From Faecalibaculum rodentium (lineage in GTDB: Bacteria; Bacillota_I; Bacilli_A; Erysipelotrichales; Erysipelotrichaceae), in NCBI RefSeq assembly GCF_001564455.1, contig NZ_CP011391.1:300001-332000 (forward strand): a DNA stretch of 32,000 nucleotides. Reading direction: 5' to 3'. This document shows, piece by piece, positions 9,559 to 30,787 of this stretch; positions within the stretch are counted from its first letter, which is position 1; each line of letters opens with the position of its first letter. Both the position numbers and the translations under genes were made by a program. The notes below the pieces were generated by a model. It worked only from the letters and a program-made list of their open reading frames with translations, did no database searches and had not been told where the DNA came from.

Positions 9559-10914
9559 TCAGTTGAAATCCGGAACCAGCGGGTCCCAGATCAGCCGCTG
9601 CTGTTCTTTCAGTGCGTAGAACATGATCATGTAAAATGGCAGATACAGTATTTCTCCTTCTGCTTTCACGTCGCTTTTGCAGAAGACGATTTTCCGCTGA
9701 AACTGCCAGTCCTTTACCTGCAGTGCCTTGTCCAGAGCCCTGTGCTTTTTATAGTCTTTTCCTGATTTGATTTCCAGAATATCGATGTCTTTTCCGTTCT
9801 GCACAACAAAGTCCAGTTCTCCTGTGGACTTGGAATCATAATAAAACAAATCCAGTCCCTTCGATGCCAGCGCCTGGGCAAAGACGTTCTCCAGAATACT
9901 GCCGGAATTGATGTCCAGTTCTCCCTGCAGGAGCTCGAATTGAATATTGCCAAGGCTCATGGCAGTCAGCAGACCCGTATCATTCAGGAACAGTTTGAAC
10001 AGGTTTCTTTTTTCATTCAGACGGAGAGGAGATACAGGTGCCGATGTATTGTAGCAGGGGAGGGCGACGCCGGCTTCTTCCAGCCAGAGAAAGCTGCTTT
10101 CCAGGCCCCGCATCTGCTGTCCCTTTCCCAGCGCATTGAGACGGAACCGGCGGTTTTTGTCGTCCAGCTGAGAGGGAATGGAATCGAAAATCTGACGGAT
10201 TTTCAAACTCATGAGCCCCTGTGCGTATTTGAAAATATCCTGCCGGTACAGGGACAGGATTTGTTTCTGAATATAGACGGTCTCTGTAATGTCCCGGGTA
10301 CTGACATAGGTCTGCACCACTTCAGGCATTCCACCCACCACGATATACGTTTCAAAGATTCGCAGCATCCGGTCATGAACCGCACCTTGCACCGCCTGTC
10401 TTCTTTCAAAGCAGTCTTTGAGATACTGTATGGTTTCCAGCGGATAGTTCAGCGCCCAGAGAAACTCCTCAAAATCCATGGGATACATATTGAGCTGTTC
10501 CTCAAATCCTACCGGCAGAGATTTGACCGGATTATACTGGATCCCGAGAAGAGATCCCGTTTCCAGGTAATGTGCGGACCCTTCTTCGACCAGAAACTTA
10601 ATGGCGGTTCTTGCCGCAGGACACTCCTGAATCTCATCCAGAATCACCAGCGTGTTTCCCGGGATGATGGATTGCCCGGTGTAGGCAGTCAGCTGAGTAA
10701 GGATCGTTTCCGCTGCTCCCTGACGGAAAATCCTGGCAGCTCCAGGATCGTTATAGAAATTGATTTCGATGACAGCGTCATAGTTCTGCTCGCCGAAATG
10801 TCTGGCCAGTGTGGATTTTCCCACCTGGCGGGCACCCATAAGGAACAGCGCCTTGGACCTGGCCCGTCTGTTTTTCCACTCCAGCAAATCCTGATACAGT
10901 TTTCGTTTCAGCAT
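9559..10914 (-). CDS. AAA+ superfamily ATPase (AAA_14 + DUF4143 architecture, COG1373-like)
   Basis: Walker A 'GARQVGKST' and Walker B 'LVILDEIQ'. The C-terminal region is typical of DUF4143 proteins. GC is lower than in the flanks (one 60-nt line counted at 43%). Confidence 0.85.
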   Translation of the reverse strand: MLKRKLYQDLLEWKNRRARSKALFLMGARQVGKSTLARHFGEQNYDAVIEINFYNDPGAARIFRQGAAETILTQLTAYTGQSIIPGNTLVILDEIQECPAARTAIKFLVEEGSAHYLETGSLLGIQYNPVKSLPVGFEEQLNMYPMDFEEFLWALNYPLETIQYLKDCFERRQAVQGAVHDRMLRIFETYIVVGGMPEVVQTYVSTRDITETVYIQKQILSLYRQDIFKYAQGLMSLKIRQIFDSIPSQLDDKNRRFRLNALGKGQQMRGLESSFLWLEEAGVALPCYNTSAPVSPLRLNEKRNLFKLFLNDTGLLTAMSLGNIQFELLQGELDINSGSILENVFAQALASKGLDLFYYDSKSTGELDFVVQNGKDIDILEIKSGKDYKKHRALDKALQVKDWQFQRKIVFCKSDVKAEGEILYLPFYMIMFYALKEQQRLIWDPLVPDFN

Positions 10915-10965
10915 AAATTACACCGCCTTCACTTCTTTTAGAACATCTCTGATTTATGGAAAAAT

Positions 10966-11018: not shown

Positions 11019-11203
11019 TAAAAAGAGCCTGCATGCACCTGTGACAGCGCCCACGGTAACCAGCCAGTTTTCCGCCGATCCCGCAATCCCCTACTGGCAA
11101 ATACCTCAGGATCCGTGACTGAGGGAAGCGCAACGCCTTCCGGCGGTCTATAATGAAGAAGACATTGAACGCTCAAATCAAAGAGGCTGAAGGAGGAACT
11201 CAT

Positions 11204-12283
11204 ATGCTTCGAATCGGAATGCTGACCAGCGGCGGCGACTGCCAGGCCCTGAACGCCACCATGCGTGCAATTTACAAATCTGTGGCCCACAACGCAAAGG
11301 AACCCTTTGAATTCTACGGATTCCAGGATGGGTACAAGGGCCTCATGTACAACAAATACAGAATGCTGACAGGGGATGACTTCACGGGAATCCTCACCGT
11401 CGGCGGGACGATCCTCGGCACAAGCCGGGTACCGTTCAAGGACATCCGCAAGCCGGATGAAAACGGCAACGACAAAGTCGAGATGATGAAACATACCTAC
11501 AACGAGCTGGAGCTCGACTGTCTGGTGGTGCTGGGCGGCAACGGTTCCCTGAAGACCGCCAACCTGCTCTCCCAGGAGGGACTGAATGTCATCGCCATGC
11601 CCAAGACCATCGACAACGATCTCTGGGGAACGGACATGACCTTCGGGTTCCAGTCCGCGGTGGACATTGCCACGAGGGCAATCGACGAGATCCACACCAC
11701 GGCATCCAGTCACGGACGGGTGTTCATTGTGGAGATCATGGGGCACAAAACCGGCTGGCTGCCGCTGAATGCAGGCATTGCCGGCGGCGCGGACATCATT
11801 CTGCTGCCGGAGATCCCCTACAGCATGGACAAGATCGTGGAGGTCATTGAGAAGAAGAAGACCAACAACGCCGGCCGGTTCATGATCCTGGCGGTGGCCG
11901 AAGGCGCCATTTCCCAGGAGGACAAGAAGCTGTCCAAGAAGGAATACAAGAAGCAGCTGCAGAACTACATGTTCCCGTCGGTGTCCTACAAACTCGCGGC
12001 GGAGATCGAAGAACGCACGGGGCGGGAAGTCCGCGTCACGGTGCCCGGGCACACACAGCGCGGTGGCATGCCGGATGCCTACGACCGGGTTTTTGCCAGC
12101 CGTCTGGGATCTGAAGGCGGGCGTATGATCTGCGAAGGTGCCTTCGGGTTCATGGTGGCATACAGAAACCGGGAAATTGTCCGGGTTCCCCTGGAAGATG
12201 CCGCCGGCAAGCTGAAGCTCGTGCAGCCGGATTCGACGATCATCAACGAAGCCCGTATGCTGGGGATCAGTTTCGGAGACTGA
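11204..12283 (+). CDS. pfkA: ATP-dependent 6-phosphofructokinase
   Basis: Motifs 'GMLTSGGDCQALN', 'PKTIDNDL' and 'PGHTQRGG'. AGGAGG RBS at 11191-11196 supports the ATG at 11204 rather than the ORF-track start at 11153. Confidence 0.9.
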   Translation: MLRIGMLTSGGDCQALNATMRAIYKSVAHNAKEPFEFYGFQDGYKGLMYNKYRMLTGDDFTGILTVGGTILGTSRVPFKDIRKPDENGNDKVEMMKHTYNELELDCLVVLGGNGSLKTANLLSQEGLNVIAMPKTIDNDLWGTDMTFGFQSAVDIATRAIDEIHTTASSHGRVFIVEIMGHKTGWLPLNAGIAGGADIILLPEIPYSMDKIVEVIEKKKTNNAGRFMILAVAEGAISQEDKKLSKKEYKKQLQNYMFPSVSYKLAAEIEERTGREVRVTVPGHTQRGGMPDAYDRVFASRLGSEGGRMICEGAFGFMVAYRNREIVRVPLEDAAGKLKLVQPDSTIINEARMLGISFGD

Positions 12284-12284
12284 C

Positions 12285-12878
12285 ATGCCGGCATTTCCGA
12301 TGTTTGTGGATCTCTCACAGAAATCGGTGCTCATTGTCGGCGGCGGTCAGATTGCCCTGCATAAAGCAAAAGCCCTGGAGCCCTTTGGCCCAAGGCTCTT
12401 TGTTGTCGCACCGGATGTGGACACCGCCTTTGATGAGATGCCCTCTGTCACGGTGCGTAGAAAGGAATACAGCGAGGATGATCTGAAGGGCATGGATATG
12501 GTCGTAGCTGCCACGGATGATTATTGCCTCAATGCACAGGTGGCGGCGGATGCCGGAAAACACCAATTGCCGGTGAATGTGGTGGATGAACCGGATCTGT
12601 GCGGGTTTTATTTCGGCAGCATGATCACCGAAGGAGATCTGACTGTTGCAGTTTCCACGGATGGGGCCAGTCCTGCCGCAGCCAGAGAGCTGAAAAAGAG
12701 GATCCGGGAGGTACTGCCCAGGGATGTGGAAGCATCTCTGGCGGTGATGAAGGCCCTGCGGCCCTTGGTAAAGCGGGTGTATCCGGATCAGAAACAGCGA
12801 AGTCGGGTGCTCAATGGGCTCACGAAGCGGGTGATGGAGGCGGATGCGGTGTGTGAGGGAGAGACAGAGAAAAAATAG
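12285..12878 (+). CDS. sirC: Precorrin-2 dehydrogenase / sirohydrochlorin ferrochelatase (SirC / CysG N-terminal-like)
   Basis: N-terminal Rossmann motif 'VLIVGGGQIALHKAKAL', about 200 aa, and an 'AVSTDGASPAAAREL' motif typical of Met8p/CysG-N/SirC. The start lies 1 nt after the pfkA stop. Confidence 0.8.
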   Translation: MPAFPMFVDLSQKSVLIVGGGQIALHKAKALEPFGPRLFVVAPDVDTAFDEMPSVTVRRKEYSEDDLKGMDMVVAATDDYCLNAQVAADAGKHQLPVNVVDEPDLCGFYFGSMITEGDLTVAVSTDGASPAAARELKKRIREVLPRDVEASLAVMKALRPLVKRVYPDQKQRSRVLNGLTKRVMEADAVCEGETEKK

Positions 12879-13011: not shown

Positions 13012-13060
13012 AAAAGCCGCAGGACGTTACGCAGTATTGCGCATAGGTCCTGCGGCTTTT
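13012..13060. terminator. Strong bidirectional terminator-like hairpin
   Basis: AAAAGCCGCAGGAC (13012-13025) pairs perfectly with GTCCTGCGGCTTTT (13047-13060). The loop carries an inner CGCA/TGCG stem. Confidence 0.6.
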
Positions 13061-13311
13061 GTCGTGATGAAGGATGCAGCCGCCATGAATATCAGGCAGG
13101 GAGACAGGCAGCTGTATGGTCGCTGATCTCTCTCTGTCGAAGTTGGAATGGACTCCAACTTTTGGTGAAATCTGCCGCCAGTTGGAGTGCGTTTGCATAC
13201 TGCCGGGGCAACCTTTCCCGGTGGTTTCCCATGGTATTTGCCAAAATGTATCCCCTATATGGCGGTTGATTCATCATCCCAATCAAACAGTACCCCGGAT
13301 ACGATGTTCAG

Positions 13312-13328
13312 TCTGATGAGAAACAGAA
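13312..13328 (+). repeat. Left copy of the 17-nt direct repeat TCTGATGA[G/C]AAACAGAA (putative island junction)
   Basis: 16/17 identical to 18457-18473 in the same orientation. Lies where composition drops from about 60% to about 40-50% GC. Confidence 0.55.
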
Positions 13329-13433
13329 CGCAAGATGGCAAGATAACAATATGATTACCAATTGATGGACAGATAAACAAAATATAAGTAAAATTGAGAC
13401 TGGGTTTAGTAATACTCCAAAGAGGTGATGACC

Positions 13434-13742
13434 ATGCATGTTACTCCATCTTTTGTTGAATCAGTATTATCTGCCTATCCGTTTGCACTGCTCATGATTC
13501 GTGATGAGAATTTGCCGGAGGAATCAGAGCTGAAAACAATCTCCAGACTGATCATTCAGTTTTATGCTCAGTGGGCCATCCGTCTGGATTCACTGGAGAA
13601 AGAAGCAATTGAGCTCCGTTACTTTAAGCGGAAGTCATTGGCAGAGATTGCAGCCGAACTGGGATATGAGAACCACAGCTCTGCAAAACGGCTTATTGAC
13701 CACACCGTGAACCGAATAGCTGAGAATGTCAGAAGCATCTGA
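13434..13742 (+). CDS. Small sigma-70 region-4-like / ArpU-RinA-like HTH protein
   Basis: C-terminal 'EKEAIELRYFKRKSLAEIAAELGYENHSSAKRLIDHTVNRIAENV' resembles a sigma region 4 HTH. No region 2 is present. AGAGGTG SD at 13421-13427 favours the ATG at 13434 over 13428 or the GTG at 13425. Confidence 0.6.
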   Translation: MHVTPSFVESVLSAYPFALLMIRDENLPEESELKTISRLIIQFYAQWAIRLDSLEKEAIELRYFKRKSLAEIAAELGYENHSSAKRLIDHTVNRIAENVRSI

Positions 13743-13866
13743 TATAAGCTATTTATAAGGATTTAATTCGGATATATAGCACATATGTGCCTGAATATTT
13801 CGTTATTCTGAATATGCAGACAACGACCGGTCATATTGTCTGAACAGAAAGAATGGTGATTATTTT

Positions 13867-16104
13867 ATGGCAGACAGCTTTGTACTGGAAGCACAGAAGT
13901 ATCTGAATGAAACGTATGGACACAACAGCAACTGGGTTCATCTGGACGAAAACGGTATGACGGGTGGATTGATGATGGAAGGCCTGGTCAGGGCGTTTCA
14001 GATCGAGCATGGAGTTCCCAGCGTTACGGGATATCTTGGACCCTATACAGTGAATATCATGCGTTCTCTGAATGACATTGAAAAAATGGATCCTTCAGAC
14101 GAACCTTCCAGCGATGTGAAACTGATTCAATGCGCGCTGTTCTGCAAAGGGTATCACGCAGGAGGAATCACAGGCATTTATTACACAAATGGTGTAAATG
14201 CCGTCAAACAGTATCAGGAAGATGCCGGGTTCAAAACCAGCGGTGTGATTGACTGGAAAGTCTGGCAGGGACTTTTCTCCATGGGCTGGTTTCAGCTTGT
14301 TCCAGGAGGAGATCCAACGCTTCGTGTAATTCAGCGAAGCATCAATGCGGACTGGTCCTCAGTCATTGGTGTCCAGCCATGTGAAGGCGTCATGAGCCGG
14401 AATACAGCTCTGTCTCTCATTGGATGCCTGCAGGGTGCACTGAATCTACAGACATGGATCCCGGACCTCACTTCTGTGGTCTTCGGGCCTGCCACTCAGT
14501 CGGCATTCTCTCAGCATCCTCTTTACGAAGGATGCTCAGAACCGGCACTGGTGAAGATTGCAAAATATGCGCTGTACTTTTACGGATTTAGCCAGACTGA
14601 ATTCTCCGGTACCTTTACCAGTGGAATGCGGCTCAACGTTGCAAACTTCCAGAAAGAGTACGGACTGACAGGACTGGATGGGGTGATTTCAGGACAAATT
14701 CATCTGACTACAATGATGTCTCTGCTGACCAGCAGAGGCAATCCCAACCGTCCCTGCACAGGCGGAGATACTTCACAGATCCTGTCCAGACAGATGTGTG
14801 ACAACCTGAAAGCAGCCGGATACAACGTAATTGGACGCTATCTGACTGGAACAGTTGGCGTGGGTGCGGCAGAACGCCCGAAATCCCTCACACCCGAAGA
14901 AATCAGGAATATTCAGGATGCAGGACTGTCGGTTTTTCCCATCTATCAGAATGGCGGGTATTATGCTGACTATTTCAAAATCAGTGGACGCGGATCCTAT
15001 GATGCGGTGACAGCGCTGCGGACTGCATCTGTCCTGGGATTTCCGGAAGAAACAGTGATCTATTTCGCGGTGGATTTCGACTGCATGAGTTATCAGACCG
15101 AGTCACTGATCATTCCATATTTCAGACAGATCGCGAATGCCTTCAGACAAGCCGCGTTCAATCCCAAAAACTACAAAATCGGTATATATGGACCCCGTGA
15201 AGTCTGCAGGCAGATTTCAGCAGAAGGTCTGGCGGAGTATTCATTCGTTGCGGATATGTCCACCGGATTCTCTGGAAATCTCGGATTCCCGATTCCCTCC
15301 AACTGGGCTTTTGATCAGTTTGATCAATTCACGTTTGGGCCTTCTCCCGCTTTTCCCCTTGATAAAGTGGCAGTATCCGGTCGTGATGGAGGAGCGCGAA
15401 AGAATGATGTGGGCGGATCTGTGACCACTGCGGAAATGCTGCAGGAAGCCCGAAGCAAGTTTACACGTCGAGTATTGTCTGCGCTTGGTTTTACAGCCAG
15501 AAAGCGGATCGACTTTGAATTTGAAGTGGGTGAACAGGTTCTGCCACCAGTATCCTCTGGAGGATTAATCATCTACCCGAGCATAAAAGAAACCGTCACA
15601 GTTCCATTTGGAGAAGATGATAGTGGTGTTATTTCTGTAAATACTCTGGACGGGAAACTTGATATCGATCTCACAACCACATTGGCTGAGATTCAAAATG
15701 TATGCGACAGTAACTCGATTAGTATAGATTTATCAGCAATGCTGAAAAATATCAGCTATGCAATTCGGAGCGGTGCAATGAAATACACCTATACGATTAA
15801 TTCCGACGGTTCAGCAACTTTTGATATTTCCATTGGTACAGACGATCTGCAGTCAGTAGAAGGAGTAGCGGGAAGTATCGGTATTGTGCTAAGTATGAAT
15901 ATTAAGTTCACAGATTCAAATGCCTATGAATGGGTTAGAGAAAGTGAAAAGCAGAAATATACAGTAGCAGCAATGGCGTTTGTTGTTTTACTTCCAATTA
16001 CAAATCCCATATTGATTGAACAAGCAAAAATTGTTCTGGTGAAAATCGTTGAGACTCTGTCTTTTGGAAGACTCATTCTGCAGGGAAGTCGAAAGAAAGA
16101 ATGA
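13867..16104 (+). CDS. Multidomain cell-wall protein: peptidoglycan-binding-like repeats + DUF1906 (Rv2525c/GH25-like) domain + unrecognised C-terminal domain with hydrophobic tail
   Basis: About four PGBD-like repeats in aa 1-290 (e.g. 'VKLIQCALFCKGYHAGGITGIYYTNGVNAVKQYQEDAGFKTSGVIDWKVWQGL'). The DUF1906-like core spans aa about 295-510 ('NVIGRYLTG', 'VFPIYQNGG', 'IYFAVDFD', 'KIGIYGPREVC', 'FVADMSTGFSGNLGFPIPSNWAFDQF'). No N-terminal signal peptide is visible. Confidence 0.75.
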   Translation: MADSFVLEAQKYLNETYGHNSNWVHLDENGMTGGLMMEGLVRAFQIEHGVPSVTGYLGPYTVNIMRSLNDIEKMDPSDEPSSDVKLIQCALFCKGYHAGGITGIYYTNGVNAVKQYQEDAGFKTSGVIDWKVWQGLFSMGWFQLVPGGDPTLRVIQRSINADWSSVIGVQPCEGVMSRNTALSLIGCLQGALNLQTWIPDLTSVVFGPATQSAFSQHPLYEGCSEPALVKIAKYALYFYGFSQTEFSGTFTSGMRLNVANFQKEYGLTGLDGVISGQIHLTTMMSLLTSRGNPNRPCTGGDTSQILSRQMCDNLKAAGYNVIGRYLTGTVGVGAAERPKSLTPEEIRNIQDAGLSVFPIYQNGGYYADYFKISGRGSYDAVTALRTASVLGFPEETVIYFAVDFDCMSYQTESLIIPYFRQIANAFRQAAFNPKNYKIGIYGPREVCRQISAEGLAEYSFVADMSTGFSGNLGFPIPSNWAFDQFDQFTFGPSPAFPLDKVAVSGRDGGARKNDVGGSVTTAEMLQEARSKFTRRVLSALGFTARKRIDFEFEVGEQVLPPVSSGGLIIYPSIKETVTVPFGEDDSGVISVNTLDGKLDIDLTTTLAEIQNVCDSNSISIDLSAMLKNISYAIRSGAMKYTYTINSDGSATFDISIGTDDLQSVEGVAGSIGIVLSMNIKFTDSNAYEWVRESEKQKYTVAAMAFVVLLPITNPILIEQAKIVLVKIVETLSFGRLILQGSRKKE

Positions 16105-16264
16105 TAGTCTGCAAGATAATAACAAGATAATAAAAGGAATCAGTCTGGGTCATTCAAGTAATCAGTATCATATTGCTGAGAGAAGTGGAATCTGTGAATT
16201 GAGACAGACTTCAGAATTTGCTTCCTATTAGTACTAAAAATGGTATAAATATCTTACGGAGAAG

Positions 16265-16298
16265 AAATCCGGTTTAGTAGTTAGCCGGATTTTCTTTT
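16265..16298 (+). terminator. Terminator candidate after the 745-aa gene
   Basis: AAATCCGG (16265-16272) pairs with CCGGATTT (16285-16292), followed by TCTTTT. Confidence 0.55.
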
Positions 16299-16379
16299 GT
16301 ATTGCCTTATATACTACGACAGCTATTTTTGTATGCACTATGCCATCATTCTTGATTTCCCAATATAGAAAGGAAATAT

Positions 16380-16892
16380 ATGAAAAATCAGTCTTCTGTC
16401 ACTGGCACGGCAACTCAATACAGAAGAATGTCTGTTTTCTGGAAAGCCGTGATGCCTGTTTCCCTGTTTATGCCATTGTTGTGCGGTGTCTGTGCTTCAC
16501 TTTGGCTATTCGTTTCTGGATTGTCGTTTCTCTCTGTGGTTGTTCTTCTCCTATACGTGGCGGTGTACAGACCCCGGAAAAAGGACCTGGCGCAGCTGAG
16601 AGTCCGTCCGGATTCCTGTCCCTTTGCAGCTTCTGAGGCAGGCATTGCCTTTCCTGACTCGGATTTGACAGTAAACTGGAACCAAATCCGGAGTTGGGCA
16701 GGGGAAAAAGAAGGCGTAGTTGCCACGCTTGACTTCTCGCCCTTTGACCTGCCCGATACGCTGGAGACCAGAGTCCTGGTCCATGAAAACGGGATTTCCT
16801 GCAGGTTGACACCAGACTCTCATCAGGACAGACAGGTCCTGATCCAGCTGTTTCGTTCTTTTGGACCGTACCGTGAAGGAGAGAAACAATGA
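16380..16892 (+). CDS. 2-TM membrane protein with small C-terminal soluble domain (type A, copy 1); possible bPH/YcxB-like fold
   Basis: Two hydrophobic helices (aa about 22-45 and 48-63) are followed by about 100 soluble aa. Paralogous to the 17430-17962 gene ('FAASEAGIAFPDSDLTVNWNQIRSW' versus 'FTASAAGIEFTGTDTVIGWKQVRKW'). GAAAGGA RBS. Confidence 0.7.
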   Translation: MKNQSSVTGTATQYRRMSVFWKAVMPVSLFMPLLCGVCASLWLFVSGLSFLSVVVLLLYVAVYRPRKKDLAQLRVRPDSCPFAASEAGIAFPDSDLTVNWNQIRSWAGEKEGVVATLDFSPFDLPDTLETRVLVHENGISCRLTPDSHQDRQVLIQLFRSFGPYREGEKQ

Positions 16893-17401
16893 AACTCAAA
16901 TGTCTGTTTCCTGAACATGTACCTGGAGGTCTGCGGCTGAAATTTCTGCAGAAGGCCAGATTTGCCTGGGTTTTCCCCCTGGTCATAGCTGGTATTGTGA
17001 CTGCAGCTTCTCTTGTTTCTCCAATGGACCAGACCCAGTGGTTCTGGACCGTTGGTATTGTTTTGGTTCTTGTTCTCCTGGCTCTGGTGAGCCTGGTGAC
17101 TGTCCTGTATGCGGGTCTGGGACATAAGGTATGTTTTCCCAACGCCTCTAAGACCGCAGAGGTCTTCTGCAATCTGAGTGAAACAGGACTTGCTTTTGAA
17201 TCTGAGGATCCAGGTGTGATTTATATCCCCAATGTGGACTGGAGTGAAGTCCCGCTGTACCAGATTGAAGGGTATGACCTGTATCTGAGTCCCGCAGGAG
17301 GAGGTCCGGTCATGATCGTGCTGGATCTTCGTGGGATCTCTCTGCAGGAAATGAGATCCCTGACAGACTTGCTGAAAGCCAGTTCCCTTGTGAAAGTATG
17401 A
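16889..17401 (+). CDS. 2-TM membrane protein with small C-terminal soluble domain (type B, copy 1)
   Basis: ATGA overlap with the upstream stop (16889-16892) and a GAAGGAGAG RBS. Clear paralogue of 17949-18461 ('PNASKTAEVFCNLSETGLAFESEDPGVIYIPNVDWSEV' versus 'PNASKTTDVFCTVDETGLYFSSPDRSVVYLPEVSWDEI'). Confidence 0.7.
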   Translation: MKLKCLFPEHVPGGLRLKFLQKARFAWVFPLVIAGIVTAASLVSPMDQTQWFWTVGIVLVLVLLALVSLVTVLYAGLGHKVCFPNASKTAEVFCNLSETGLAFESEDPGVIYIPNVDWSEVPLYQIEGYDLYLSPAGGGPVMIVLDLRGISLQEMRSLTDLLKASSLVKV

Positions 17402-17429
17402 GTTCCGACGGTGATTGAGGAGAATGGAA

Positions 17430-17962
17430 ATGGAAAATGAAATAGTGATCAAAGGGCACGCCAGGCCTTATCGGTTTTTTTCCGTTTCCTGATTGCGGGG
17501 TATATCGTTCTGTTCATCCCTCCGCTTTTGTTGTTGCTGATAATTCTGAGTTCACTTTTGGTGGGGGGAGAACCGGTGATGGGATCGGCTTCCCTGATTG
17601 CGCTGCTGGTTTGCACCGTTCAGTTGATTCGAGGCTACCGAAACCTGTCCAAGGAAACACCTGGTTTCTTTACCGCATCCGCTGCCGGCATTGAATTTAC
17701 CGGTACAGATACTGTCATTGGTTGGAAACAGGTCAGGAAGTGGTCCAGAAAACGAAAGGGAATTCTGATAACTCTGGAAGCTGGACCATACAGATCACTT
17801 CAGACGTTTTCCGGACTGGTCCTCGGTCATGACAAGGGGTTTGCATTTCTTCTACGGCCTGATGCCAGTCAACAGAATAAAGAAACGGTTTATACAGAAC
17901 TGATACAGTTGCTGAATCAGAACACAAAGGACAGAAAGAAGGGTGATCATGATCACGTTTAA
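17430..17962 (+). pseudogene. Type A copy 2, interrupted by a frameshift at a T7 tract (or a slippage-dependent gene)
   Basis: The ATG at 17430 (GAGGAG SD at 17417-17422) opens 'MENEIVIKGHARPYRFFSVS*', which stops at 17490-17492. The paralogous body is in the -1 frame, open from 17441, with no ATG; the ORF track uses the TTG at 17528. One extra T in the T7 run at 17475-17481 would fuse the two frames. Confidence 0.6.
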
Positions 17963-18461
17963 ATGCTGTTTTCCAGAGAACGTGTCCAAAGAATTTCGGG
18001 TGGCAACGGTGTCTCCTATATGGAGAACATTGGGATTGCCTGTATTCTGTGTGGGCTATTCCCTGTATCTGGCCTGTCAGCCTGTGTCGGATACAGTGAG
18101 GTACAGTCTGATTGGGGTTGCCATCCTTGGAGCCATATGCGGGGGTCTGCAGCTGTGGGCCAGAAGGGTTCTCGGTTTTGGGTATCCACCACATTATCCC
18201 AATGCCTCAAAGACCACTGACGTGTTCTGCACGGTGGATGAGACCGGCTTGTATTTTTCGTCGCCGGACCGTTCTGTGGTATATCTTCCGGAAGTCTCCT
18301 GGGATGAGATCAAGAGCTATCGGCTGATTGGCTCGACGCTGTTTCTGACACCGTATAAATGGGCAGTGGTGCTGGTGGCGCTGGATATGGACGGCCATAC
18401 GCTGGAGGAATGGAGAGACCTCGTTGAGCTGATGAAAGCCGGCAATGTTTCGGAAATCTGA
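17949..18461 (+). CDS. 2-TM membrane protein with small C-terminal soluble domain (type B, copy 2)
   Basis: The ATG at 17949 aligns 'MITFKCCFPENV' with copy 1 'MKLKCLFPEHV'. It overlaps the upstream gene by 14 nt. The ORF-track start at 17943 is a GTG. Confidence 0.7.
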   Translation: MITFKCCFPENVSKEFRVATVSPIWRTLGLPVFCVGYSLYLACQPVSDTVRYSLIGVAILGAICGGLQLWARRVLGFGYPPHYPNASKTTDVFCTVDETGLYFSSPDRSVVYLPEVSWDEIKSYRLIGSTLFLTPYKWAVVLVALDMDGHTLEEWRDLVELMKAGNVSEI

Positions 18462-18473
18462 TGACAAACAGAA
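18457..18473 (+). repeat. Right copy of the 17-nt direct repeat (putative island junction)
   Basis: TCTGATGACAAACAGAA. It overlaps the stop codon of the last island gene and immediately precedes a terminator hairpin. Confidence 0.55.
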
Positions 18474-18476
18474 AAC

Positions 18477-18520
18477 AGAGCGGATGTCCCTGCGTCATGA
18501 CAGGGGAGATCCGCTCTTTT
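18477..18520. terminator. Terminator hairpin between the island and convergent manA
   Basis: AGAGCGGAT (18477-18485) pairs with ATCCGCTCT (18509-18517), with an inner TCCCTG/CAGGGGA stem, followed by TTT. Confidence 0.65.
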
Positions 18521-18575
18521 CAGTGCCTTCTGCAATCTGAATGGACCGCATCGGTTCTCTCACAGAAAAACCTTC

Positions 18576-19529
18576 TCAGTTCTGCTCACGGTTCCGATAG
18601 GAGGCCAGAAACAGATCCAGGTTCCCGCAGATCTGAAGCGCACCCATCCCTGCCGGGACCAGAATAGTCTCTCCCTGGCGGACCGGAATACCATTCACAG
18701 TCCCTTCTCCTTTTGCCGCTGTCAGGAAACAGAACCGGTCATGGATGAAGGTTCCGCGGTCTTCGCACTCCAGCCGGATCAGGGTATACAGACCCGGCTC
18801 ATCCCAGTACCGGGTGGCCTTCAGGCCCTGTTCCAGAGAAGAGGGCAGCATCTCAAACTCGATCAGTCTGTCCGGCAGATTCACGTTGTCATAGACGGCC
18901 TCCGGCTGGATCGGTCTTGTGGTGCCGGTATTCGGGTCGATCCTGTCATAGTCGTACAGCCGAAGGGTCAGATCTGCGTTCCGGGAAATGTTGTAGGTCA
19001 GTACGCCTTTGCCAATGGCATGGAGGGTGCCCGCCGGAATGTCAATGAACCCGCCAACCGGTGTATGCAGATACCGCAGCAGTTTCTCCCATTCCCGGTT
19101 CTCCGTCATCCGGACAAATTCATCCCTGTTCTTTGCGTAATGCCCGAACTGGATCTGCCCGTCTTCCGGTGCATCCAGAATCACCCAGGCCTCCGGCTTT
19201 CCTCTGCCGCCGTTCCAGGTCCGGGCAAAGGCATCGTCCGGATGCAGCTGAATGGACAGATCGTCCATGGGATCCAGGATGTTGACCCGAATGGGCAGTT
19301 CCTTTGTATCGCAGTCAAACCAGTCCGGGGCAGCCGTATACAGCTCTGACAGCGTCATCTTCAGCTGCTGTATTTCACAGTCTGCATGTCCTGGCAGCGC
19401 CACCACATTGTAGACTTCTCCCAGGGGCTTTACATCGGTATGGTAATGAAACTCCGTTTCCAGCCGGGTTCCGCCACCCCACATCCTCGGTTCATAATAC
19501 GGGCTGATGTGCACAATCTCTTTCTTCAT
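18576..19529 (-). CDS. manA: Mannose-6-phosphate isomerase, class I
   Basis: 'PRMWGGG', 'SIQLHPDD' and 'KPEAWVIL' cupin motifs typical of Firmicutes type I PMI (about 315 aa). Confidence 0.9.
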   Translation of the reverse strand: MKKEIVHISPYYEPRMWGGGTRLETEFHYHTDVKPLGEVYNVVALPGHADCEIQQLKMTLSELYTAAPDWFDCDTKELPIRVNILDPMDDLSIQLHPDDAFARTWNGGRGKPEAWVILDAPEDGQIQFGHYAKNRDEFVRMTENREWEKLLRYLHTPVGGFIDIPAGTLHAIGKGVLTYNISRNADLTLRLYDYDRIDPNTGTTRPIQPEAVYDNVNLPDRLIEFEMLPSSLEQGLKATRYWDEPGLYTLIRLECEDRGTFIHDRFCFLTAAKGEGTVNGIPVRQGETILVPAGMGALQICGNLDLFLASYRNREQN

Positions 19530-19722
19530 ATCCGCTTCCTTCCTCTCTGACTCTTACGATACAGCATTCAAAAAGCGCATTCACCTAAAATGTTATGACA
19601 TTTTCAGAGAGCAGGCTCCAGGATAGGCCATTGCCATCCGCCTCTGCCGGCTTTCATCTGGCTGCGGCAAAACACACGCCATCCCTTGCGGCAGTTTCGG
19701 GACGGACCACAGCTGGTCTCTC

Positions 19723-19776: not shown

Positions 19777-21279
19777 ATGAAACAGGACACAGTCACAGAA
19801 ATCAGACAGGAGCCGGGAACGGTGATTCTGGCAGGAGCCGGATGCGGCGGCAGGGAACTGCTGACCCTGCAGGTGCTGGACCTGATCAGACGGGCAGACG
19901 TGATCGTCTATGACGACTTGATTTCGCAGGACATCCTGGATATCGATACGGATGCAGAGTGGATCTACGCGGGAAAACGCAAAGGCCTTCACAGCATGAC
20001 ACAGGAGGAAATCAACGAGCTCCTCATTTCCCTGGCCCAGACCCATGCGCTGGTTCTCCGTCTGAAAGGCGGCGATCCCTTTGTGTTCGGACGCGGACGG
20101 GAAGAAATGCGGGCTGTCCGGGAAGCGGGTATCTGTTGCCAGAGCGCACCGGGGATCACCAGTGCCATTGCGGTGCCGGAACGTTTTGACATCCCCGTCA
20201 CGGACCGGATCCACGCCTCTTCCTTCACGGTGATCACGGCTTCCCGGAAAAGTCAGGGAAAGCCCTTCGGTGCTGATGCAGGGTGGGTAGCGCATCAGCC
20301 CGGCACCCTGGTGATCCTCATGGGCCTTTCCAGGCTTCCGGAAATCGTGGAGGAACTGATCCGGGCCGGAAAGGATCCCCGGACACCGACAGCGGTGATT
20401 TCCTCTGCGGAAATCAGCCATTCGGAGATGGTCAGGGGAGAACTGAGTGAAATCACGGGAAAAGCGGCGGCTTTGCAGCCGCCGGCAATCATCCTGATCG
20501 GGGATGTGGTGAAGGAAGCCCGGCTGCCGCAGGACATGGCGGAAAAAGAAAAGCCGCAGCGGTTTACAGTCTGGACCACGTTCACCGATGACCTGACAGC
20601 CCGGGTGCGCAGGCGGCTGCCTGACACGATCCGGCTGATTCCGGTACTGGAGGCTGCCCATGAAAGAGTGGAGTCTGCAAAACCCCGGGATCTGGAGACT
20701 GACTGGATCGTCCTGACCAGCCGTCGGGGCGCCGGATTTTTCCTGGAGGACCTGAAGAAACAGAAACTGGATCTGCGGAAACTGCCGAAGATCGCGGTGG
20801 TGGGCAAAGCCACAGCCGAGGTGCTGGAAGAAGCGGGACTCTACCCGGACCTGGTGCCGGAAACTGCCGAAACGCCGGAACTGGTCCGGGAGCTGAAAAG
20901 AGCAGCAGAACCCGGCAGCCGGATCCTGCTGCTGCGGGCGCGCGAAGCCGACCATGAGATGGAGACGGCCCTGGAAACGGACTTCCGGGTGATGCGGAAG
21001 GATCTTTACGAAATCCGCTACAGCAGCCGGGACCTGAAGCGGCTCCCCGGACCGGATCTGATGGCTTTCGCTTCCCGCAGCGCCGTCAGGGCCTGGAAGG
21101 AACCGGTTCCCTGTCCGGTGCTGTGCATCTCCGATATCACGGCTTCCCAGGTGCATCAGGATCACCCGGAAGCGTCTGTCCTGCTGGCAGATGAAATCAG
21201 TGCAGCGGGGCTCGCGGAAACGATCATCGGTCTGAGCCAGGCAGAATCAGCTGTTCCGGAGCCTGGATCTGCCAGATAA
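19777..21279 (+). CDS. cobA-hemD: Uroporphyrinogen-III C-methyltransferase / uroporphyrinogen-III synthase fusion
   Basis: The N-terminal half is SUMT-like ('VILAGAGCGGRELLTLQVLDLIRRADVIVYDDL', 'LRLKGGDPFVFGRG'). The C-terminal about 250 aa is HemD-like. GGGAGG SD at 19764-19769 favours the ATG at 19777; the ORF-track start at 19771 is a TTG. Confidence 0.85.
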   Translation: MKQDTVTEIRQEPGTVILAGAGCGGRELLTLQVLDLIRRADVIVYDDLISQDILDIDTDAEWIYAGKRKGLHSMTQEEINELLISLAQTHALVLRLKGGDPFVFGRGREEMRAVREAGICCQSAPGITSAIAVPERFDIPVTDRIHASSFTVITASRKSQGKPFGADAGWVAHQPGTLVILMGLSRLPEIVEELIRAGKDPRTPTAVISSAEISHSEMVRGELSEITGKAAALQPPAIILIGDVVKEARLPQDMAEKEKPQRFTVWTTFTDDLTARVRRRLPDTIRLIPVLEAAHERVESAKPRDLETDWIVLTSRRGAGFFLEDLKKQKLDLRKLPKIAVVGKATAEVLEEAGLYPDLVPETAETPELVRELKRAAEPGSRILLLRAREADHEMETALETDFRVMRKDLYEIRYSSRDLKRLPGPDLMAFASRSAVRAWKEPVPCPVLCISDITASQVHQDHPEASVLLADEISAAGLAETIIGLSQAESAVPEPGSAR

Positions 21280-21388
21280 GCCCCGGCACGGCTTCCTGGT
21301 CCGGAAAGGAGCAGGAAGCGCATCGGCAGAAAAGCCGGAAACAGAAAGAGGAAAAGACAGAAGGGAAAGAGAAAGGAAGGAAAGACAC

Positions 21389-22279
21389 ATGAACCGCAAC
21401 CTGATTATGAAGCAGGCCATCAACACGCTCCGGACCCTGGCCGGCAACCTGCTGCTGGCAGTGGCCGTCAATGTCTTCATCCGGTCCTTCAGCATGACCG
21501 CCGGCGGCAGCACCGGTCTGGCGCTGATCATTTCCCACTACCTGCCCGCCATCAGCTTCTCTCTTGCCACCACCATTGTCAGCTGGAGCTGCTTCTTTCT
21601 CGGCCTGCTGTTTCTGGGGATGAAGTTTGCGCTGACCACCCTGATTTCCACCATTGGCTATCCGCTGTTTGTGCAGCTGACGGGATTTCTCACCACTTCC
21701 CAGGTGACCGCCGATCCCCTGGTGGCTGCGGTTGCCGGCGGCTGTCTCATGGGAGCGGGTCTGGGGCTGATCATTCAGTCCGGTGCCAGTTCCGGGGGCC
21801 TGGATATTCCGCCCATCATTCTCCACCGGAAACTCGGCTGGAACCTCACCGTGACGATGTGGCTCGCCGACATTGCCTTCCTGGCCATTCAGTCTTCCTT
21901 TTCTCCGCTGACAGCGCTCCTCCATGGCCTGATCCTCATTGCCTGCACGTACCTGGTCATGAATCAGATCCTGACCATCGGCACATCCGCGGTGCAGGTG
22001 CTGATCGTGACAGCGAAATCAGAAGAAGTGCGGCAGCTGCTGGAACAGGACCTGGACAAAGGCGCCACGCTGCTGCATGGAAAAACCGCCCATGCGGGGC
22101 GGGAAACGGATGTGATCCTGTCGGTATTCGAACGCAAGGAACTTCCCGCACTGCGCCAGCGTGTCTCCGACCTGGATCCCGGGGCGTTCATGGTGGTCTC
22201 CAATGTGCAGGAAGTGCGCGGACTTGGCTTTACGGGCTGGAAAAAGATCAAGGCCCAGGACATTCTGCTGGATGAATAA
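21389..22279 (+). CDS. YitT-family membrane protein (DUF161 repeats + C-terminal DUF2179)
   Basis: Multi-pass N-terminal region with 'GGSTGLALI' and 'SSGGLD' motifs. The soluble C-terminus 'VLIVT ... DLDPGAFMVVSNVQEVRG' is typical of DUF2179. Confidence 0.8.
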   Translation: MNRNLIMKQAINTLRTLAGNLLLAVAVNVFIRSFSMTAGGSTGLALIISHYLPAISFSLATTIVSWSCFFLGLLFLGMKFALTTLISTIGYPLFVQLTGFLTTSQVTADPLVAAVAGGCLMGAGLGLIIQSGASSGGLDIPPIILHRKLGWNLTVTMWLADIAFLAIQSSFSPLTALLHGLILIACTYLVMNQILTIGTSAVQVLIVTAKSEEVRQLLEQDLDKGATLLHGKTAHAGRETDVILSVFERKELPALRQRVSDLDPGAFMVVSNVQEVRGLGFTGWKKIKAQDILLDE

Positions 22280-30478: not shown

Positions 30479-30739
30479 ATGGCAGACGAATTCAGAAAAA
30501 TGGAGAACAATATCCTCGAAAAGGAACTGCGTCACGATGAAAACAAGATCGACGCCAAGCGCGGCGACATTGCCGATCACGAAGCACAGATCGACAAGGA
30601 TAAGACGAAGTTCATGAAGGATATTCACAAGGAAGAAATCAAGCATGACGAGCGCGTGATGGCCCGCAAGGAAAACGATGCAGAGCGTCACGAAGAGAAG
30701 ATCAAGGAAAACGAACAGATCATTCACGGCATCAAGTAA
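30479..30739 (+). CDS. Small (86 aa) highly charged His/Asp/Glu/Lys-rich repeat protein, unknown function
   Basis: AAGGAGG RBS at 30463-30469, 9 nt before the ATG, and a terminator follows directly. Four loosely repeated motifs: RHDENKID, DHEAQIDK, KHDERVMA and RHEEKIKE. Confidence 0.65.
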   Translation: MADEFRKMENNILEKELRHDENKIDAKRGDIADHEAQIDKDKTKFMKDIHKEEIKHDERVMARKENDAERHEEKIKENEQIIHGIK

Positions 30740-30754
30740 ACCGGATGAAGCAGA

Positions 30755-30787
30755 CCGCAGGACCTGGATTTCAGGACTGCGGTTTTT
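30755..30787 (+). terminator. Rho-independent terminator after the small charged protein gene
   Basis: CCGCAG-GA-CCTG ... CAGG-A-CTGCGG, followed by TTTTT. Confidence 0.6.

Follow-up and report, generated by a model that had tools for sequence, protein, structure and literature searches.

A probable chromosomal effector-immunity locus of the BacA/YbfG family, polymorphic among Faecalibaculum strains

In Faecalibaculum, a genus of Erysipelotrichaceae found in the mouse gut, the low-GC region behind sirC probably represents a polymorphic, chromosomally encoded effector-immunity locus that belongs to the BacA (Bac41)/YbfG family and is located at a recombination hotspot. In the window (the whole stretch of 32,000 nucleotides of F. 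rodentium contig NZ_CP011391.1 that was analyzed), a 745-aa full-length homolog of BacA and of Bacillus subtilis YbfG is preceded by a small regulator gene and followed by small membrane-protein genes, and both its C-terminal tail and the genes behind it vary among strains. A sequence-only reading of this DNA had already proposed a coherent cell-wall-directed module, and this view is upheld; among the functions offered at that time (lysis, export or effector-immunity), the last fits best. The module had not been recognized as a described system, whereas the large protein belongs to the BacA/YbfG family and the bacA-bacI logic of Bac41 has already been published.

Gene content of the low-GC region

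The features of the locus are as follows (window coordinates, strand, description; a dot means that no strand is assigned).

12285..12878, +, sirC (precorrin-2 dehydrogenase), conserved left flank (Pfam NAD_binding_7 and Sirohm_synth_M)
13012..13060,., terminator-like hairpin 3' of sirC with a perfect 14-bp stem (inverted repeat I8)
13139..13162,., palindromic element AAGTTGGA-N-TCCAACTT at the true left breakpoint, where homology is lost
13190..13343,., biallelic spacer holding the left 17-mer (13312-13328), from contig comparison
13366..13394, +, sigma-70-like promoter match upstream of the regulator (TGGACA-17-TAAAAT, 10/12 positions, consensus match only)
13434..13742, +, RinA/ArpU-like regulator of 102 aa that has sigma region 4 only (alternative GTG start 13425)
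13867..16104, +, 745-aa BacA/YbfG-family protein, putative effector, no leader peptide
15367..16101, +, variable C-terminal module of the effector (residues 501-745), from the identity drop against close variants
15938..17412, +, swappable cassette of type-1 effector tail, spacer, A1 and B1 (breakpoints against L113/L114)
16264..16293, +, terminator-like hairpin after the effector gene (11-bp stem, then a T-run)
16380..16892, +, A1, 170-aa membrane protein with two hydrophobic segments, putative immunity (hydropathy; aligns with the modeled paralog B2)
16889..17401, +, B1, 170-aa two-helix membrane protein (hydropathy); its start overlaps the A1 stop
17430..17962, +, A2, frameshifted second-pair gene (full frame from ATG 17430; residual ORF 17528-17962)
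17943..18461, +, B2, 172 aa, predicted two-helix membrane segment and PH-like domain (AlphaFold model, Foldseek)
18457..18473, +, right 17-mer, covering the TGA stop of B2 and extending 12 nt into the manA segment
18462..19688, -, manA segment (gene 18576-19529), whose presence does not depend on that of the module
18474..18520,., hairpin between the convergent B2 and manA genes, a bidirectional terminator candidate (inverted repeat I7; minus-strand terminator-like site)

The low-GC region is real and its composition differs from that of its flanks, as had been claimed: GC is 0.37-0.53 at about 13.0-18.5 kb versus 0.55-0.62 in the flanks (GC profile of the window), positions 13190-18461 have a GC of 0.466 versus 0.563 for the remainder of the window (by-feature composition), and GC3 is 0.27-0.60 in the region versus 0.62-0.77 in flanking genes. 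The hand counts behind the original claim (24/60 and 38/60) were both exact on recount. The GC minimum corresponds to the C-terminal module of the effector (GC3 0.27-0.36). The gene list given earlier is also correct, including the small sigma-region-4 protein, the 745-aa protein and four small membrane-protein genes in tandem, except that the third of these four is frameshifted rather than intact; no integrase, recombinase or transposase was found among the window ORFs or their Pfam, PHROG and NCBIfam matches.

The 102-aa regulator has a sub-threshold Pfam match to Sigma70_r4 (E 6e-5), NCBIfam matches to sigma70-ECF and RinA, and PHROG matches to transcriptional regulator and sigma factor families. 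It shares 27% identity (pairwise E 3e-9) with the product of a 110-aa gene located upstream of the BacA-like gene of Dubosiella.

The 745-aa protein is 37% identical to BacA of E. faecalis pRFP1 over 611 aa (BLASTP, E 4e-110), and contains three PG_binding_1 stretches and an Rv2525c_GlyHyd-like (Rv2525c/DUF1906) domain at residues 313-482 (Pfam). It matches phrog_15213 over its full length (E 1.9e-128), whereas an endolysin-like match (phrog_13480) is limited to the catalytic domain. Conservation is distributed very unevenly along the protein. Compared with variant P0002, identity falls from 97% (residues 301-500) to 87% (501-600), 53% (601-690) and 20% (691-745); P0002 and the F. rodentium protein P0004 both share 96-97% of residues 1-500 with the effector, followed by a tail of 53% and then 20% identity, so only 20% of the last 55 residues are identical in close variants. 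The same gradient is seen across genera, as the N-terminal 500 residues are 43-66% identical in Dubosiella, Lacrimispora and P0093 and 32-46% identical in E. faecalis BacA, versus 3-26% for the C-terminal part. Within the tail, residues 699-717 (nt 15961-16017) make up a hydrophobic helix, and the AlphaFold model of the C-terminal module (pLDDT 77) had no fold match in PDB or BFVD.

The four downstream genes represent two diverged pairs, A1B1 and A2B2, in which A1 and A2 share 37% identity and B1 and B2 31% over their full length. In the window, loss of 1 nt within a T7 run (17475-17481) puts A2 out of frame, and one added T gives a 177-aa ORF; the T7 run is found in all window-type assemblies, whereas the gene is intact as a 176-aa form in L005, and an intact 176-aa gene is also called in L007, L103, L104 and L107. 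The AlphaFold model of B2 (pLDDT 76, moderate) contains helices at residues 31-44 and 50-77 followed by a helix-capped beta-sandwich, for which Foldseek gave a probability of about 1.0 to FERM F3 and SSRP1 PH domains. Each A/B protein is predicted to combine a two-helix membrane segment with a PH-like domain. This family is very narrow and lineage-restricted; none of the four window proteins matched Pfam YcxB (PF14317), for which the best distant relative had an E of 0.045, or any holin family in Pfam or PHROG.

A similar layout, in which a BacA-like gene is followed by genes whose short products (136-201 aa) all have one or more predicted hydrophobic segments, was found in Dubosiella (with a homologous regulator upstream), Lacrimispora, Lachnospira, E. 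faecalis and Clostridium baratii. In the last of these, it is located on a 9-kb plasmid that also encodes a sigma factor and a BhlA/UviB holin-like peptide.

Polymorphism and recombination around the module

An identical SirC protein followed by the module was observed in 23/23 contigs, and strains differ mostly in the tail of the effector and in the second A/B pair. A change of tail type goes along with a change in the gene directly downstream. The type-1 tail is followed by A1B1 in every case (window, L001-L007, L103 and L104), whereas homology of L113/L114 with the window ends at 15937 and restarts at 17413, and a 361-bp type-2 tail and spacer runs straight into an intact A2-type gene; this second linkage comes from two short contigs of one study. 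The size of this sample is among the points that weigh against the effector-immunity reading, as are the frameshift of A2 in the window and the identical A/B genes of the 745- and 759-aa type-1 variants.

In the sister lineage (L100, L107/L108), positions 13190-16362 are replaced by HmaA, HmaB and HmaC together with a 291-aa gene (junctions 13189 and 16363), whereas A1, B1, A2 and B2 are retained at about 90% identity. An Hma anti-phage system thus stands in place of the regulator and the effector next to retained membrane-protein genes, which by analogy corresponds to an orphan-immunity pattern.

The flanks of the module are variable as well. On the left side, the hairpin behind sirC lies within the part conserved in the sister lineage, and homology ends at 13161 for the other spacer allele and at 13189 for the sister lineage. 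The palindromic element at this breakpoint varies in copy number; L004 has an additional one, and there are two in L100. The window-type spacer is missing from many conspecific strains: unrelated sequence of about 320 bp replaces it in L001, L002, L004, L006, L113 and L114, and homology of L115 with the window is likewise lost over 13190-13339. On the right side, the manA segment is gone from L005, L103 and L104 (breakpoints 18461 and 19689). The manA product matches TIGR00218 below the curated cut-off (E 3.5e-19; 69.2 bits versus 116.2) and Pfam PMI_typeI_cat above the gathering score (24.4 versus 22 bits).

Alternative explanations and proposed mode of action

The region had originally been considered a single integrated element, mobilized or decayed, whose 17-nt direct repeat represents attL and attR. 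The repeat itself exists as reported (13312-13328 and 18457-18473, 16/17 identical, same orientation), both copies are near the compositional edges, and the composition suggests foreign origin; even so, this explanation is now highly improbable. The window contains nine direct 17-mer pairs with no more than one mismatch, of which the boundary pair is just one and three others lie inside the low-GC region (first-order Markov sequences give 1.9 +/- 1.3, maximum 6), so the proposed significance of the repeat is not borne out. Each copy is also missing from some carriers of the module. L001, L002, L004 and L006, in which the whole module is present, have a different left spacer (reading TCTGTTGAAGGTGAGAA) and therefore only a single copy of the 17-mer, and the right copy is absent from L005, L103 and L104 because the manA indel begins immediately behind the TGA and cuts the 17-mer in half. 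Among the contigs spanning both sites (window, L001-L011 with twice-sampled contigs counted once, L103 and L104), both copies occur only in the window, L003 (same contig as L010) and L007, and the other carriers have one copy. The left copy is missing from L113-L115, whose contigs end short of the right site, and in L107 the right copy is still there after loss of the regulator and effector, which lie in the left half of the low-GC region. The statement that the repeat lies exactly at the two compositional edges is not confirmed either: the junctions seen in relatives are located at about 13161-13189, 15937/17413, 16363 and 18461/19689, neither position 13312 nor the end of the right copy is among them, and no related genome compared had a junction at either copy. 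An empty site with a single 17-mer between the flanks, which had been suggested as a check, was not found in the genus, and the sister lineage represents a partial replacement. At least three blocks (regulator and effector; effector tail and A1B1; manA) recombine independently, in disagreement with one mobilized unit, and the lack of a recombinase points the same way. The pair was thus rejected as an att scar, its left copy belonging to a biallelic spacer and its right copy being split by a separate manA indel.

A decayed prophage lysis cassette, consisting of a RinA/ArpU-like late-gene activator, an endolysin and two-helix holins or antiholins, would agree with the phage regulator and sigma families matched by the regulator, with the PHROG matches of the 745-aa protein and its catalytic domain, and with the two membrane helices typical of class II holins. 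It is nevertheless improbable, since phage structural, integrase and packaging genes are absent in all lineages examined, the membrane proteins, in which a folded PH-like domain of some 90 aa is predicted, have no holin-family match, their genes persist after loss of the "endolysin", and the only record of the phage collection that contains a full-length homolog is an unverified 10-kb metagenome scaffold. A housekeeping wall-remodeling operon of the ybfGFE kind, in which the 745-aa protein is the cell's own autolysin or wall-editing enzyme and the membrane proteins serve wall homeostasis, is also rather unlikely, although the family includes the chromosomal ybfG of B. subtilis, whose neighbor YbfF protects from beta-lactam-induced lysis (a phenotype not seen on ybfG deletion), the module is fixed in the conspecific contigs, and no partner lysin or export gene is nearby. 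Several observations argue against it: a trunk of 97% and a tail of 20% identity inside one species are abnormal for housekeeping enzymes, the cassette is swapped together with the adjacent gene, a defense system has replaced the effector while the neighboring membrane genes were kept, and the low GC3 and the patchy, plasmid-rich distribution of the effector family (566 plasmid records) suggest an accessory gene.

Under the effector-immunity reading, export, killing and immunity itself would take place as follows. The sigma-region-4 regulator may turn on the 745-aa gene, whose leaderless product would leave the cell by a non-classical route; YbfG, another leaderless family member, has been detected outside cells in pellicle and culture-fluid proteomes of Bacillus amyloliquefaciens (PMC12020853). 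The protein would then bind peptidoglycan via its three PG_binding_1 repeats, the Rv2525c-type glycoside-hydrolase-like domain would act on the wall, and the variable C-terminal module (alpha/beta domain and hydrophobic helical tail) might determine which cells are harmed. The A/B pairs, with their predicted PH-like domains, would neutralize this module, with A1B1 as the putative cognate pair for the resident type-1 tail and A2B2 as a putative orphan pair directed against type-2 tails from competitor strains.

Relationship to known systems

The closest likeness is to the bacteriolysin locus Bac41 of E. faecalis pheromone plasmids (bacL1, bacL2, bacA and bacI; pYI14 type, here represented by pRFP1), an experimentally studied system for which BacL1 and BacA are reported to be effectors that are secreted and BacI to be the factor for self-protection (bioRxiv 10.1101/2020.11.20.391417; PMC13532309). 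Full-length homology to BacA is accompanied by a length close to the roughly 730 aa of this protein type and by a shared leaderless start, PG-binding repeats, Rv2525c-like domain and hydrophobic C-terminal helix, and both loci have a positive regulator gene nearby and small membrane proteins encoded directly downstream of the effector. As in Bac41, where BacA subtypes and variation 3' of bacA have been tied to specific immunity factors (PMC8532689; PMC11808071), variation is focused in the C-terminal part of the effector and in the genes that follow it. The differences are also clear. The Faecalibaculum locus is chromosomal rather than on a conjugative plasmid, its 102-aa regulator does not align with the 211-aa BacL2, and the downstream proteins, encoded where bacI would be expected, form a separate lineage-restricted family of two pairs without similarity to either of the two pRFP1 genes downstream of bacA (blastp; hhalign probability 0.9%). 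It has no holin-family gene, and no ORF between sirC and cobA/hemD encodes a BacL1-type endopeptidase with SH3 repeats; BacA acting without a partner is not described in the papers considered here, which include bioRxiv 10.1101/2020.11.20.391417. These absences and the unlike downstream proteins weigh against the effector-immunity reading, too.

YcxB/bPH membrane proteins have a predicted layout similar to that of the A/B proteins, with two membrane helices and then a PH-like domain (hydropathy and B2 model), and the Bac41 locus encodes a YcxB-family protein two genes downstream of bacA; however, the A/B proteins have no above-threshold Pfam YcxB match and no profile similarity to the enterococcal protein. 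The ybfGFE genes of B. subtilis are chromosomal and also combine a BacA/YbfG-family gene with a following gene for a membrane protein that protects from wall-linked lysis, whereas the YbfF phenotype is not tied to YbfG, which likewise weighs against the effector-immunity reading, and neither a polymorphic tail nor a tandem paralog array has been reported there.

Polymorphic toxin loci (CDI with CdiA-CT/CdiI, Rhs and LXG) have a conserved trunk, a swappable C-terminal module and a cognate gene just downstream, and their orphan immunity genes may be displaced and kept after toxin loss. They are not homologous to the Faecalibaculum locus, and the window contains no T5SS, T6SS or T7SS delivery domain or apparatus; in addition, the trunk here is itself PG-binding and hydrolase-like, and the putative immunity genes are pairs of A/B membrane-protein genes. 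Their evolutionary logic is shared with the Faecalibaculum locus, where the second tail is represented by a small sample.

Composition, gene content and proposed ends of the island

GC content falls to 0.37-0.53 between 13.0 and 18.5 kb of the window, compared with 0.55-0.62 in both flanks (500-nt windows), and is 0.466 over 13190-18461 against 0.563 in the remaining sequence. Third-position GC is also lower in the island genes (0.27-0.60) than in pfk, sirC, manA, cobA/hemD and yitT (0.62-0.77). The sharp compositional drop reported in the sequence-only reading is therefore real, its two hand counts of GC proved exact on recount, and the open reading frames that it described agree with the ORF calls listed below. 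Other low-GC stretches (0.45-0.48) are present at the right end of the window (30501-32000) and at 1001-1500.

Features of the island and its flanks
11153-12283: pfk (ORF call)
12285-12878: sirC (ORF call)
13434-13742: 102-aa protein, matching sigma region 4 below threshold
13867-16104: 745-aa protein (the putative effector), in which an Rv2525c/DUF1906 glycoside-hydrolase-like domain occurs together with three PG_binding_1 stretches
16380-18461: four small membrane proteins, A1, B1, A2 and B2 in that order (ORF calls)
18576-19529, minus strand: manA, with cobA/hemD beyond

The 17-mers TCTGATGA[G/C]AAACAGAA at 13312-13328 and 18457-18473 had been taken as attL and attR of a single integrated element. 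The right copy does contain the TGA of the last island gene, as had been stated. With up to one mismatch allowed, the window holds nine direct 17-mer pairs, three of them inside the island besides the claimed pair, whereas composition-matched random sequences (first-order Markov) contain about two. More decisive than this chance count, the repeat is not conserved among carriers. In four contigs (L001, L002, L004 and L006), a different allele of ~320 bp replaces window 13162-13343, and TCTGTTGAAGGTGAGAA stands at the site of the left copy. The right copy is split in three contigs without manA (L005, L103 and L104), with the breakpoint directly after the TGA at 18461, and L107, from a sister lineage, retains the right 17-mer though the left half of the island is lost. 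Across all comparisons, junctions were observed at 13161-13189, 15937/17413, 16363 and 18461/19689, and none at the 17-mers. Two look-ups were made, of contigs encoding a SirC or a ManA protein identical to that of the window (23 contigs each); the module occupied the same position in 23/23 contigs of both, and no conspecific empty site was found among them. Junctions away from the 17-mers are what the sequence-only reading had itself named as counting against an att scar, and such an origin now appears very improbable: the boundaries and the mobility mechanism proposed were wrong. For annotation, the lesson is that a compositional island with a short flanking repeat is not necessarily an integrated element, and can instead be a hotspot at which competition and defence genes recombine.

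Recombination and cassette replacement

Two contigs whose effector has an alternative (type-2) C-terminal tail, L113 and L114, lose homology to the window at 15937 (codon 691) and regain it at 17413, 17 nt before A2, with an intact A2-type gene directly 3' of the effector; the link between type-2 tail and A2 comes from these two short contigs only. Because homology stops and resumes at these points, window 15938-17412, comprising the type-1 tail, a spacer, A1 and B1, is a cassette. A1 and B1 adjoin the effector in all ten distinct type-1-tail contigs that reach past it. Nucleotide diversity among conspecific strains is mosaic, with peaks at the spacer plus regulator, the effector tail and A2B2.

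A larger replacement was detected in the sister lineage (SirC 81% identical), in which the order is pfk, sirC, 291-aa gene, HmaC, HmaB, HmaA, A1, B1, A2, B2, manA and cobA/hemD. Here 13190-16362 is replaced and the rest is ~90% identical to the window. The exact site of the regulator and effector is taken up there by a complete Hma defence system, made up of the helicase HmaA, the methylase HmaB, the ATPase HmaC and the 291-aa gene (L100 10934-20606, L107 1-8131). The locus sits at a hotspot that also accepts this system. As L115, from the same clade, retains regulator and effector at this site, the module is ancestral there and has been partly replaced by Hma. Natural loss of the effector has left putative immunity genes behind, and the tail-plus-immunity structure of the cassette is clear, which points to diversifying selection on the C-terminal module rather than on the hydrolase-like trunk. 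The locus also offers strains of matched types in which killing and protection could be assayed.

The region as a whole undergoes frequent homologous recombination, which extends to core genes. Among strains with identical SirC protein, pfk (11200-11900) shows mosaic divergence (88-93%), and cobA/hemD (20400-21400) contains mosaic blocks of 53-76% in L005 and L007. Among the matches listed in a CobA/HemD search of the genome contigs, none exceeded 49% identity (at most 39% at full length); a generic methylase motif was dominant and no close relative was found. The palindromic element AAGTTGGA-N-TCCAACTT, present in one to three copies depending on strain, was found at the left breakpoint (window 13139-13162) and also in L004 (~10850-10900) and L100 (~10850-10930), and may be a small repeat element promoting recombination. 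On the right, the presence of the manA segment (18462-19688) varies independently of the module, and a 131-bp spacer with a terminator takes its place in L005, L103 and L104. A perfect 14-nt inverted repeat (18431-18444/19645-19658) brackets this segment and was considered, but not adopted, as a possible segment end. A second variable site is the interval between pfk and a low-GC AAA_14/DUF4143 ATPase gene (9559-10914, minus strand): the two adjoin in the window, and in the sister lineage (L100 1164-8920) they are separated by ~7.7 kb encoding a sugar ABC transporter, a GH77 amylomaltase and an epimerase. Strains also differ 3' of yitT (window from ~22300; L008/L011 vs L009/L010), having either an RpiR-family regulator and GH4 glycosidase, as in the window, or a SocA/Panacea-domain gene and its small partner, together with genes for a two-component system and an ABC transporter.

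The putative effector and its small downstream proteins

About 1,700 relatives of the 745-aa protein were identified in the protein collection, mostly of 730-760 aa and with the same architecture, including proteins assigned to F. rodentium (84-87% identical), to Dubosiella newyorkensis (50%) and to Lacrimispora and Lachnospira multipara, and entries named ybfG. These names place the window in Faecalibaculum (Erysipelotrichaceae). A translated search matched 566 plasmid records, 384 of them from Enterococcus. The Lactococcus carnosus 'bacteriolysin' was rejected as a relative, being an unrelated lysozyme-like protein of 197 aa. Conservation is concentrated in the trunk of the protein. Two homologues, P0002 (a close variant) and P0004 (from F. 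rodentium), are 96-97% identical to the effector over residues 1-500 (141-500 for P0004, which is N-terminally truncated), but identity then decreases to 87% (501-600), 53% (601-690) and 20% (691-745). Across genera, the N-terminal 500 residues are 43-66% identical in Dubosiella, Lacrimispora and a further homologue (P0093), and 32-46% in comparison with E. faecalis BacA, whereas the C-terminal part shows just 3-26% identity. The GC minimum also coincides with the tail. The C-terminal module was modelled (pLDDT 77) as an alpha/beta domain with long helices after it, and the model had no significant match in PDB or BFVD.

The four small genes are two diverged pairs, with an overlap inside each pair: A1 (16380-16892) is 37% identical to A2, and B1 (16889-17401) is 31% identical to B2 (17943-18461) over the full length. 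Hydropathy indicates two N-terminal membrane segments each in A1 and B1 and a single clear one in B2; in the truncated A2 ORF, the N-terminal segments overlap. The AlphaFold model of B2 (pLDDT 76) has two helices followed by a beta-sandwich with a helix cap and matches the PH-like domains FERM F3 and SSRP1 (Foldseek probability ~1.0). The modelled architecture is that of YcxB/bacterial-PH proteins; none of the A/B proteins matched Pfam YcxB above threshold, a comparison of their family profile with enterococcal YcxB was negative (hhalign probability 0.9%), and no homology to the enterococcal genes downstream of bacA was detectable. The family is extremely narrow, with seven clusters in a word-indexed search and nine proteins at E <=0.001 in a HMMER scan of 1.84 billion representatives; two of the weakest of these, large TIG-/cadherin-repeat proteins, are probably spurious. 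A2 is disrupted in the window: the frame that opens at ATG 17430 is shifted by the loss of one base from a T7 run (17475-17481) common to all window-type assemblies, and one extra T restores a 177-aa protein. By translation, A2 is intact (176 aa) in L005 and has an intact frame and start in L113, and gene calling gives an uninterrupted 176-aa form in L007, L103, L104 and L107. The frameshift could reflect either decay of an orphan gene or phase variation.

In other genera, too, small proteins with one or more predicted hydrophobic segments apiece are encoded directly after a BacA-like gene: proteins of 175 and 201 aa in Dubosiella, 146 aa in one gut taxon, 187 aa in Lacrimispora, and 186 aa in Lachnospira, which has a degenerate second copy. 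Pairwise blastp of the small downstream proteins from the different genera gave no cross-genus match at E <0.1; apart from the Faecalibaculum A/B proteins, one clear match emerged, between two Lachnospira genes that share a locus. Dubosiella also has an upstream 110-aa regulator homologous to that of the window (pairwise E 3e-9). A C. baratii plasmid of 9 kb encodes, beside its BacA-like gene, a sigma-70 factor together with a holin-like peptide of the BhlA/UviB type, a combination typical of clostridial bacteriocin plasmids. The second copy in Lachnospira multipara (L112 9891-11444), ~2.6 kb downstream of the intact gene, consists of a truncated Rv2525c-like fragment (96 aa) and genes for 241 and 177 aa, the latter product 27% identical to the 186-aa protein adjoining the intact gene; it may be a displaced orphan module.

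Proposed function and comparison with Bac41

An experimentally studied relative is BacA of the Bac41 operon, the annotated region matched on E. faecalis plasmid pRFP1. The effector is 37% identical to BacA over 611 residues (E 4e-110), starting from residue 2-3 of each; both are without a signal peptide, and each has one strongly hydrophobic segment near the C-terminus by hydropathy. The island cargo is a real, coherent accessory locus, but not an unrecognised system, since its effector belongs to a described family. As a known defence system it was rejected, because none of its six proteins had a PADLOC match. We consider it probable that the effector is a polymorphic, stand-alone chromosomal form of BacA, accompanied by lineage-specific paired PH-domain membrane proteins at a hotspot.

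On homology and comparative anatomy, the effector would leave the cell by non-classical export, attach to peptidoglycan and exert its action through the hydrolase-like domain in combination with the variable C-terminal module, and each cognate tail would be neutralised by an A/B pair anchored in the membrane. The 102-aa RinA/ArpU-like regulator, which gave no alignment with BacL2, probably activates the effector promoter (13743-13866), and a hairpin terminator between effector and A/B genes (16264-16293) would let the latter be expressed independently. The B. subtilis relative lies in the ybfGFE operon, whose membrane protein YbfF protects against beta-lactam-induced lysis, and YbfG of B. amyloliquefaciens has been detected in extracellular proteomes (PMC12020853). 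A housekeeping wall-remodelling operon of this kind is nevertheless an unlikely identity for the locus, as it leaves unexplained the tail polymorphism, the cassette swap and the retention of membrane genes after effector loss. Still less probable is a decayed prophage lysis cassette, suggested by PHROG matches: phage genes were found in no lineage, and 'holins' retained without an endolysin would make little sense.

Extending the stand-alone BacA reading beyond this locus, we tentatively propose that BacA/YbfG proteins might be a widespread Firmicutes class of leaderless, peptidoglycan-anchored polymorphic effectors able to work without BacL1, whose exchangeable C-terminal module, with no fold relative in the solved-structure or viral libraries searched, would set specificity or toxicity, and which in Faecalibaculum would be neutralised by previously undescribed paired two-helix plus PH-like membrane proteins. 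If true, the long-standing 'undefined' action of BacA would become a testable question about this module.

In Bac41, two secreted effectors, BacL1 and BacA, lyse E. faecalis jointly; the system is positively regulated by BacL2, and self-protection comes from BacI (bioRxiv 10.1101/2020.11.20.391417; PMC13532309). The enzymatic action of BacA is still described as 'undefined', though Bac41 is common in clinical E. faecalis (bioRxiv 10.1101/2020.11.20.391417), and differences downstream of bacA among Bac41 subtypes are tied to specific immunity factors (PMC8532689; PMC11808071). On pRFP1, the gene for BacA, a glycoside-hydrolase-domain protein of 726 aa, is preceded, in this order, by those for a peptidoglycan amidohydrolase (in the BacL1 position), bacL2, a phage-holin-family gene and a gene for 175 aa. 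After it come genes for a protein of 180 aa that has four membrane helices and for a YcxB-family protein of 191 aa that has two; RefSeq plasmid annotation lists the gene 3' of bacA as hypothetical. The order BacL1-BacA-small protein was also observed outside Enterococcus, in an unverified 'phage' scaffold from human faeces (L116, MT836466.1, 5441-10205), which encodes a 563-aa endolysin/peptidase-domain protein, a 755-aa BacA-like protein and a 186-aa protein. Neither a BacL1 partner nor a holin gene is present in the Faecalibaculum locus: whereas Bac41 combines BacL1 with a plasmid-borne bacA, this dominant mouse-gut commensal carries the BacA family in a chromosomal, stand-alone form.
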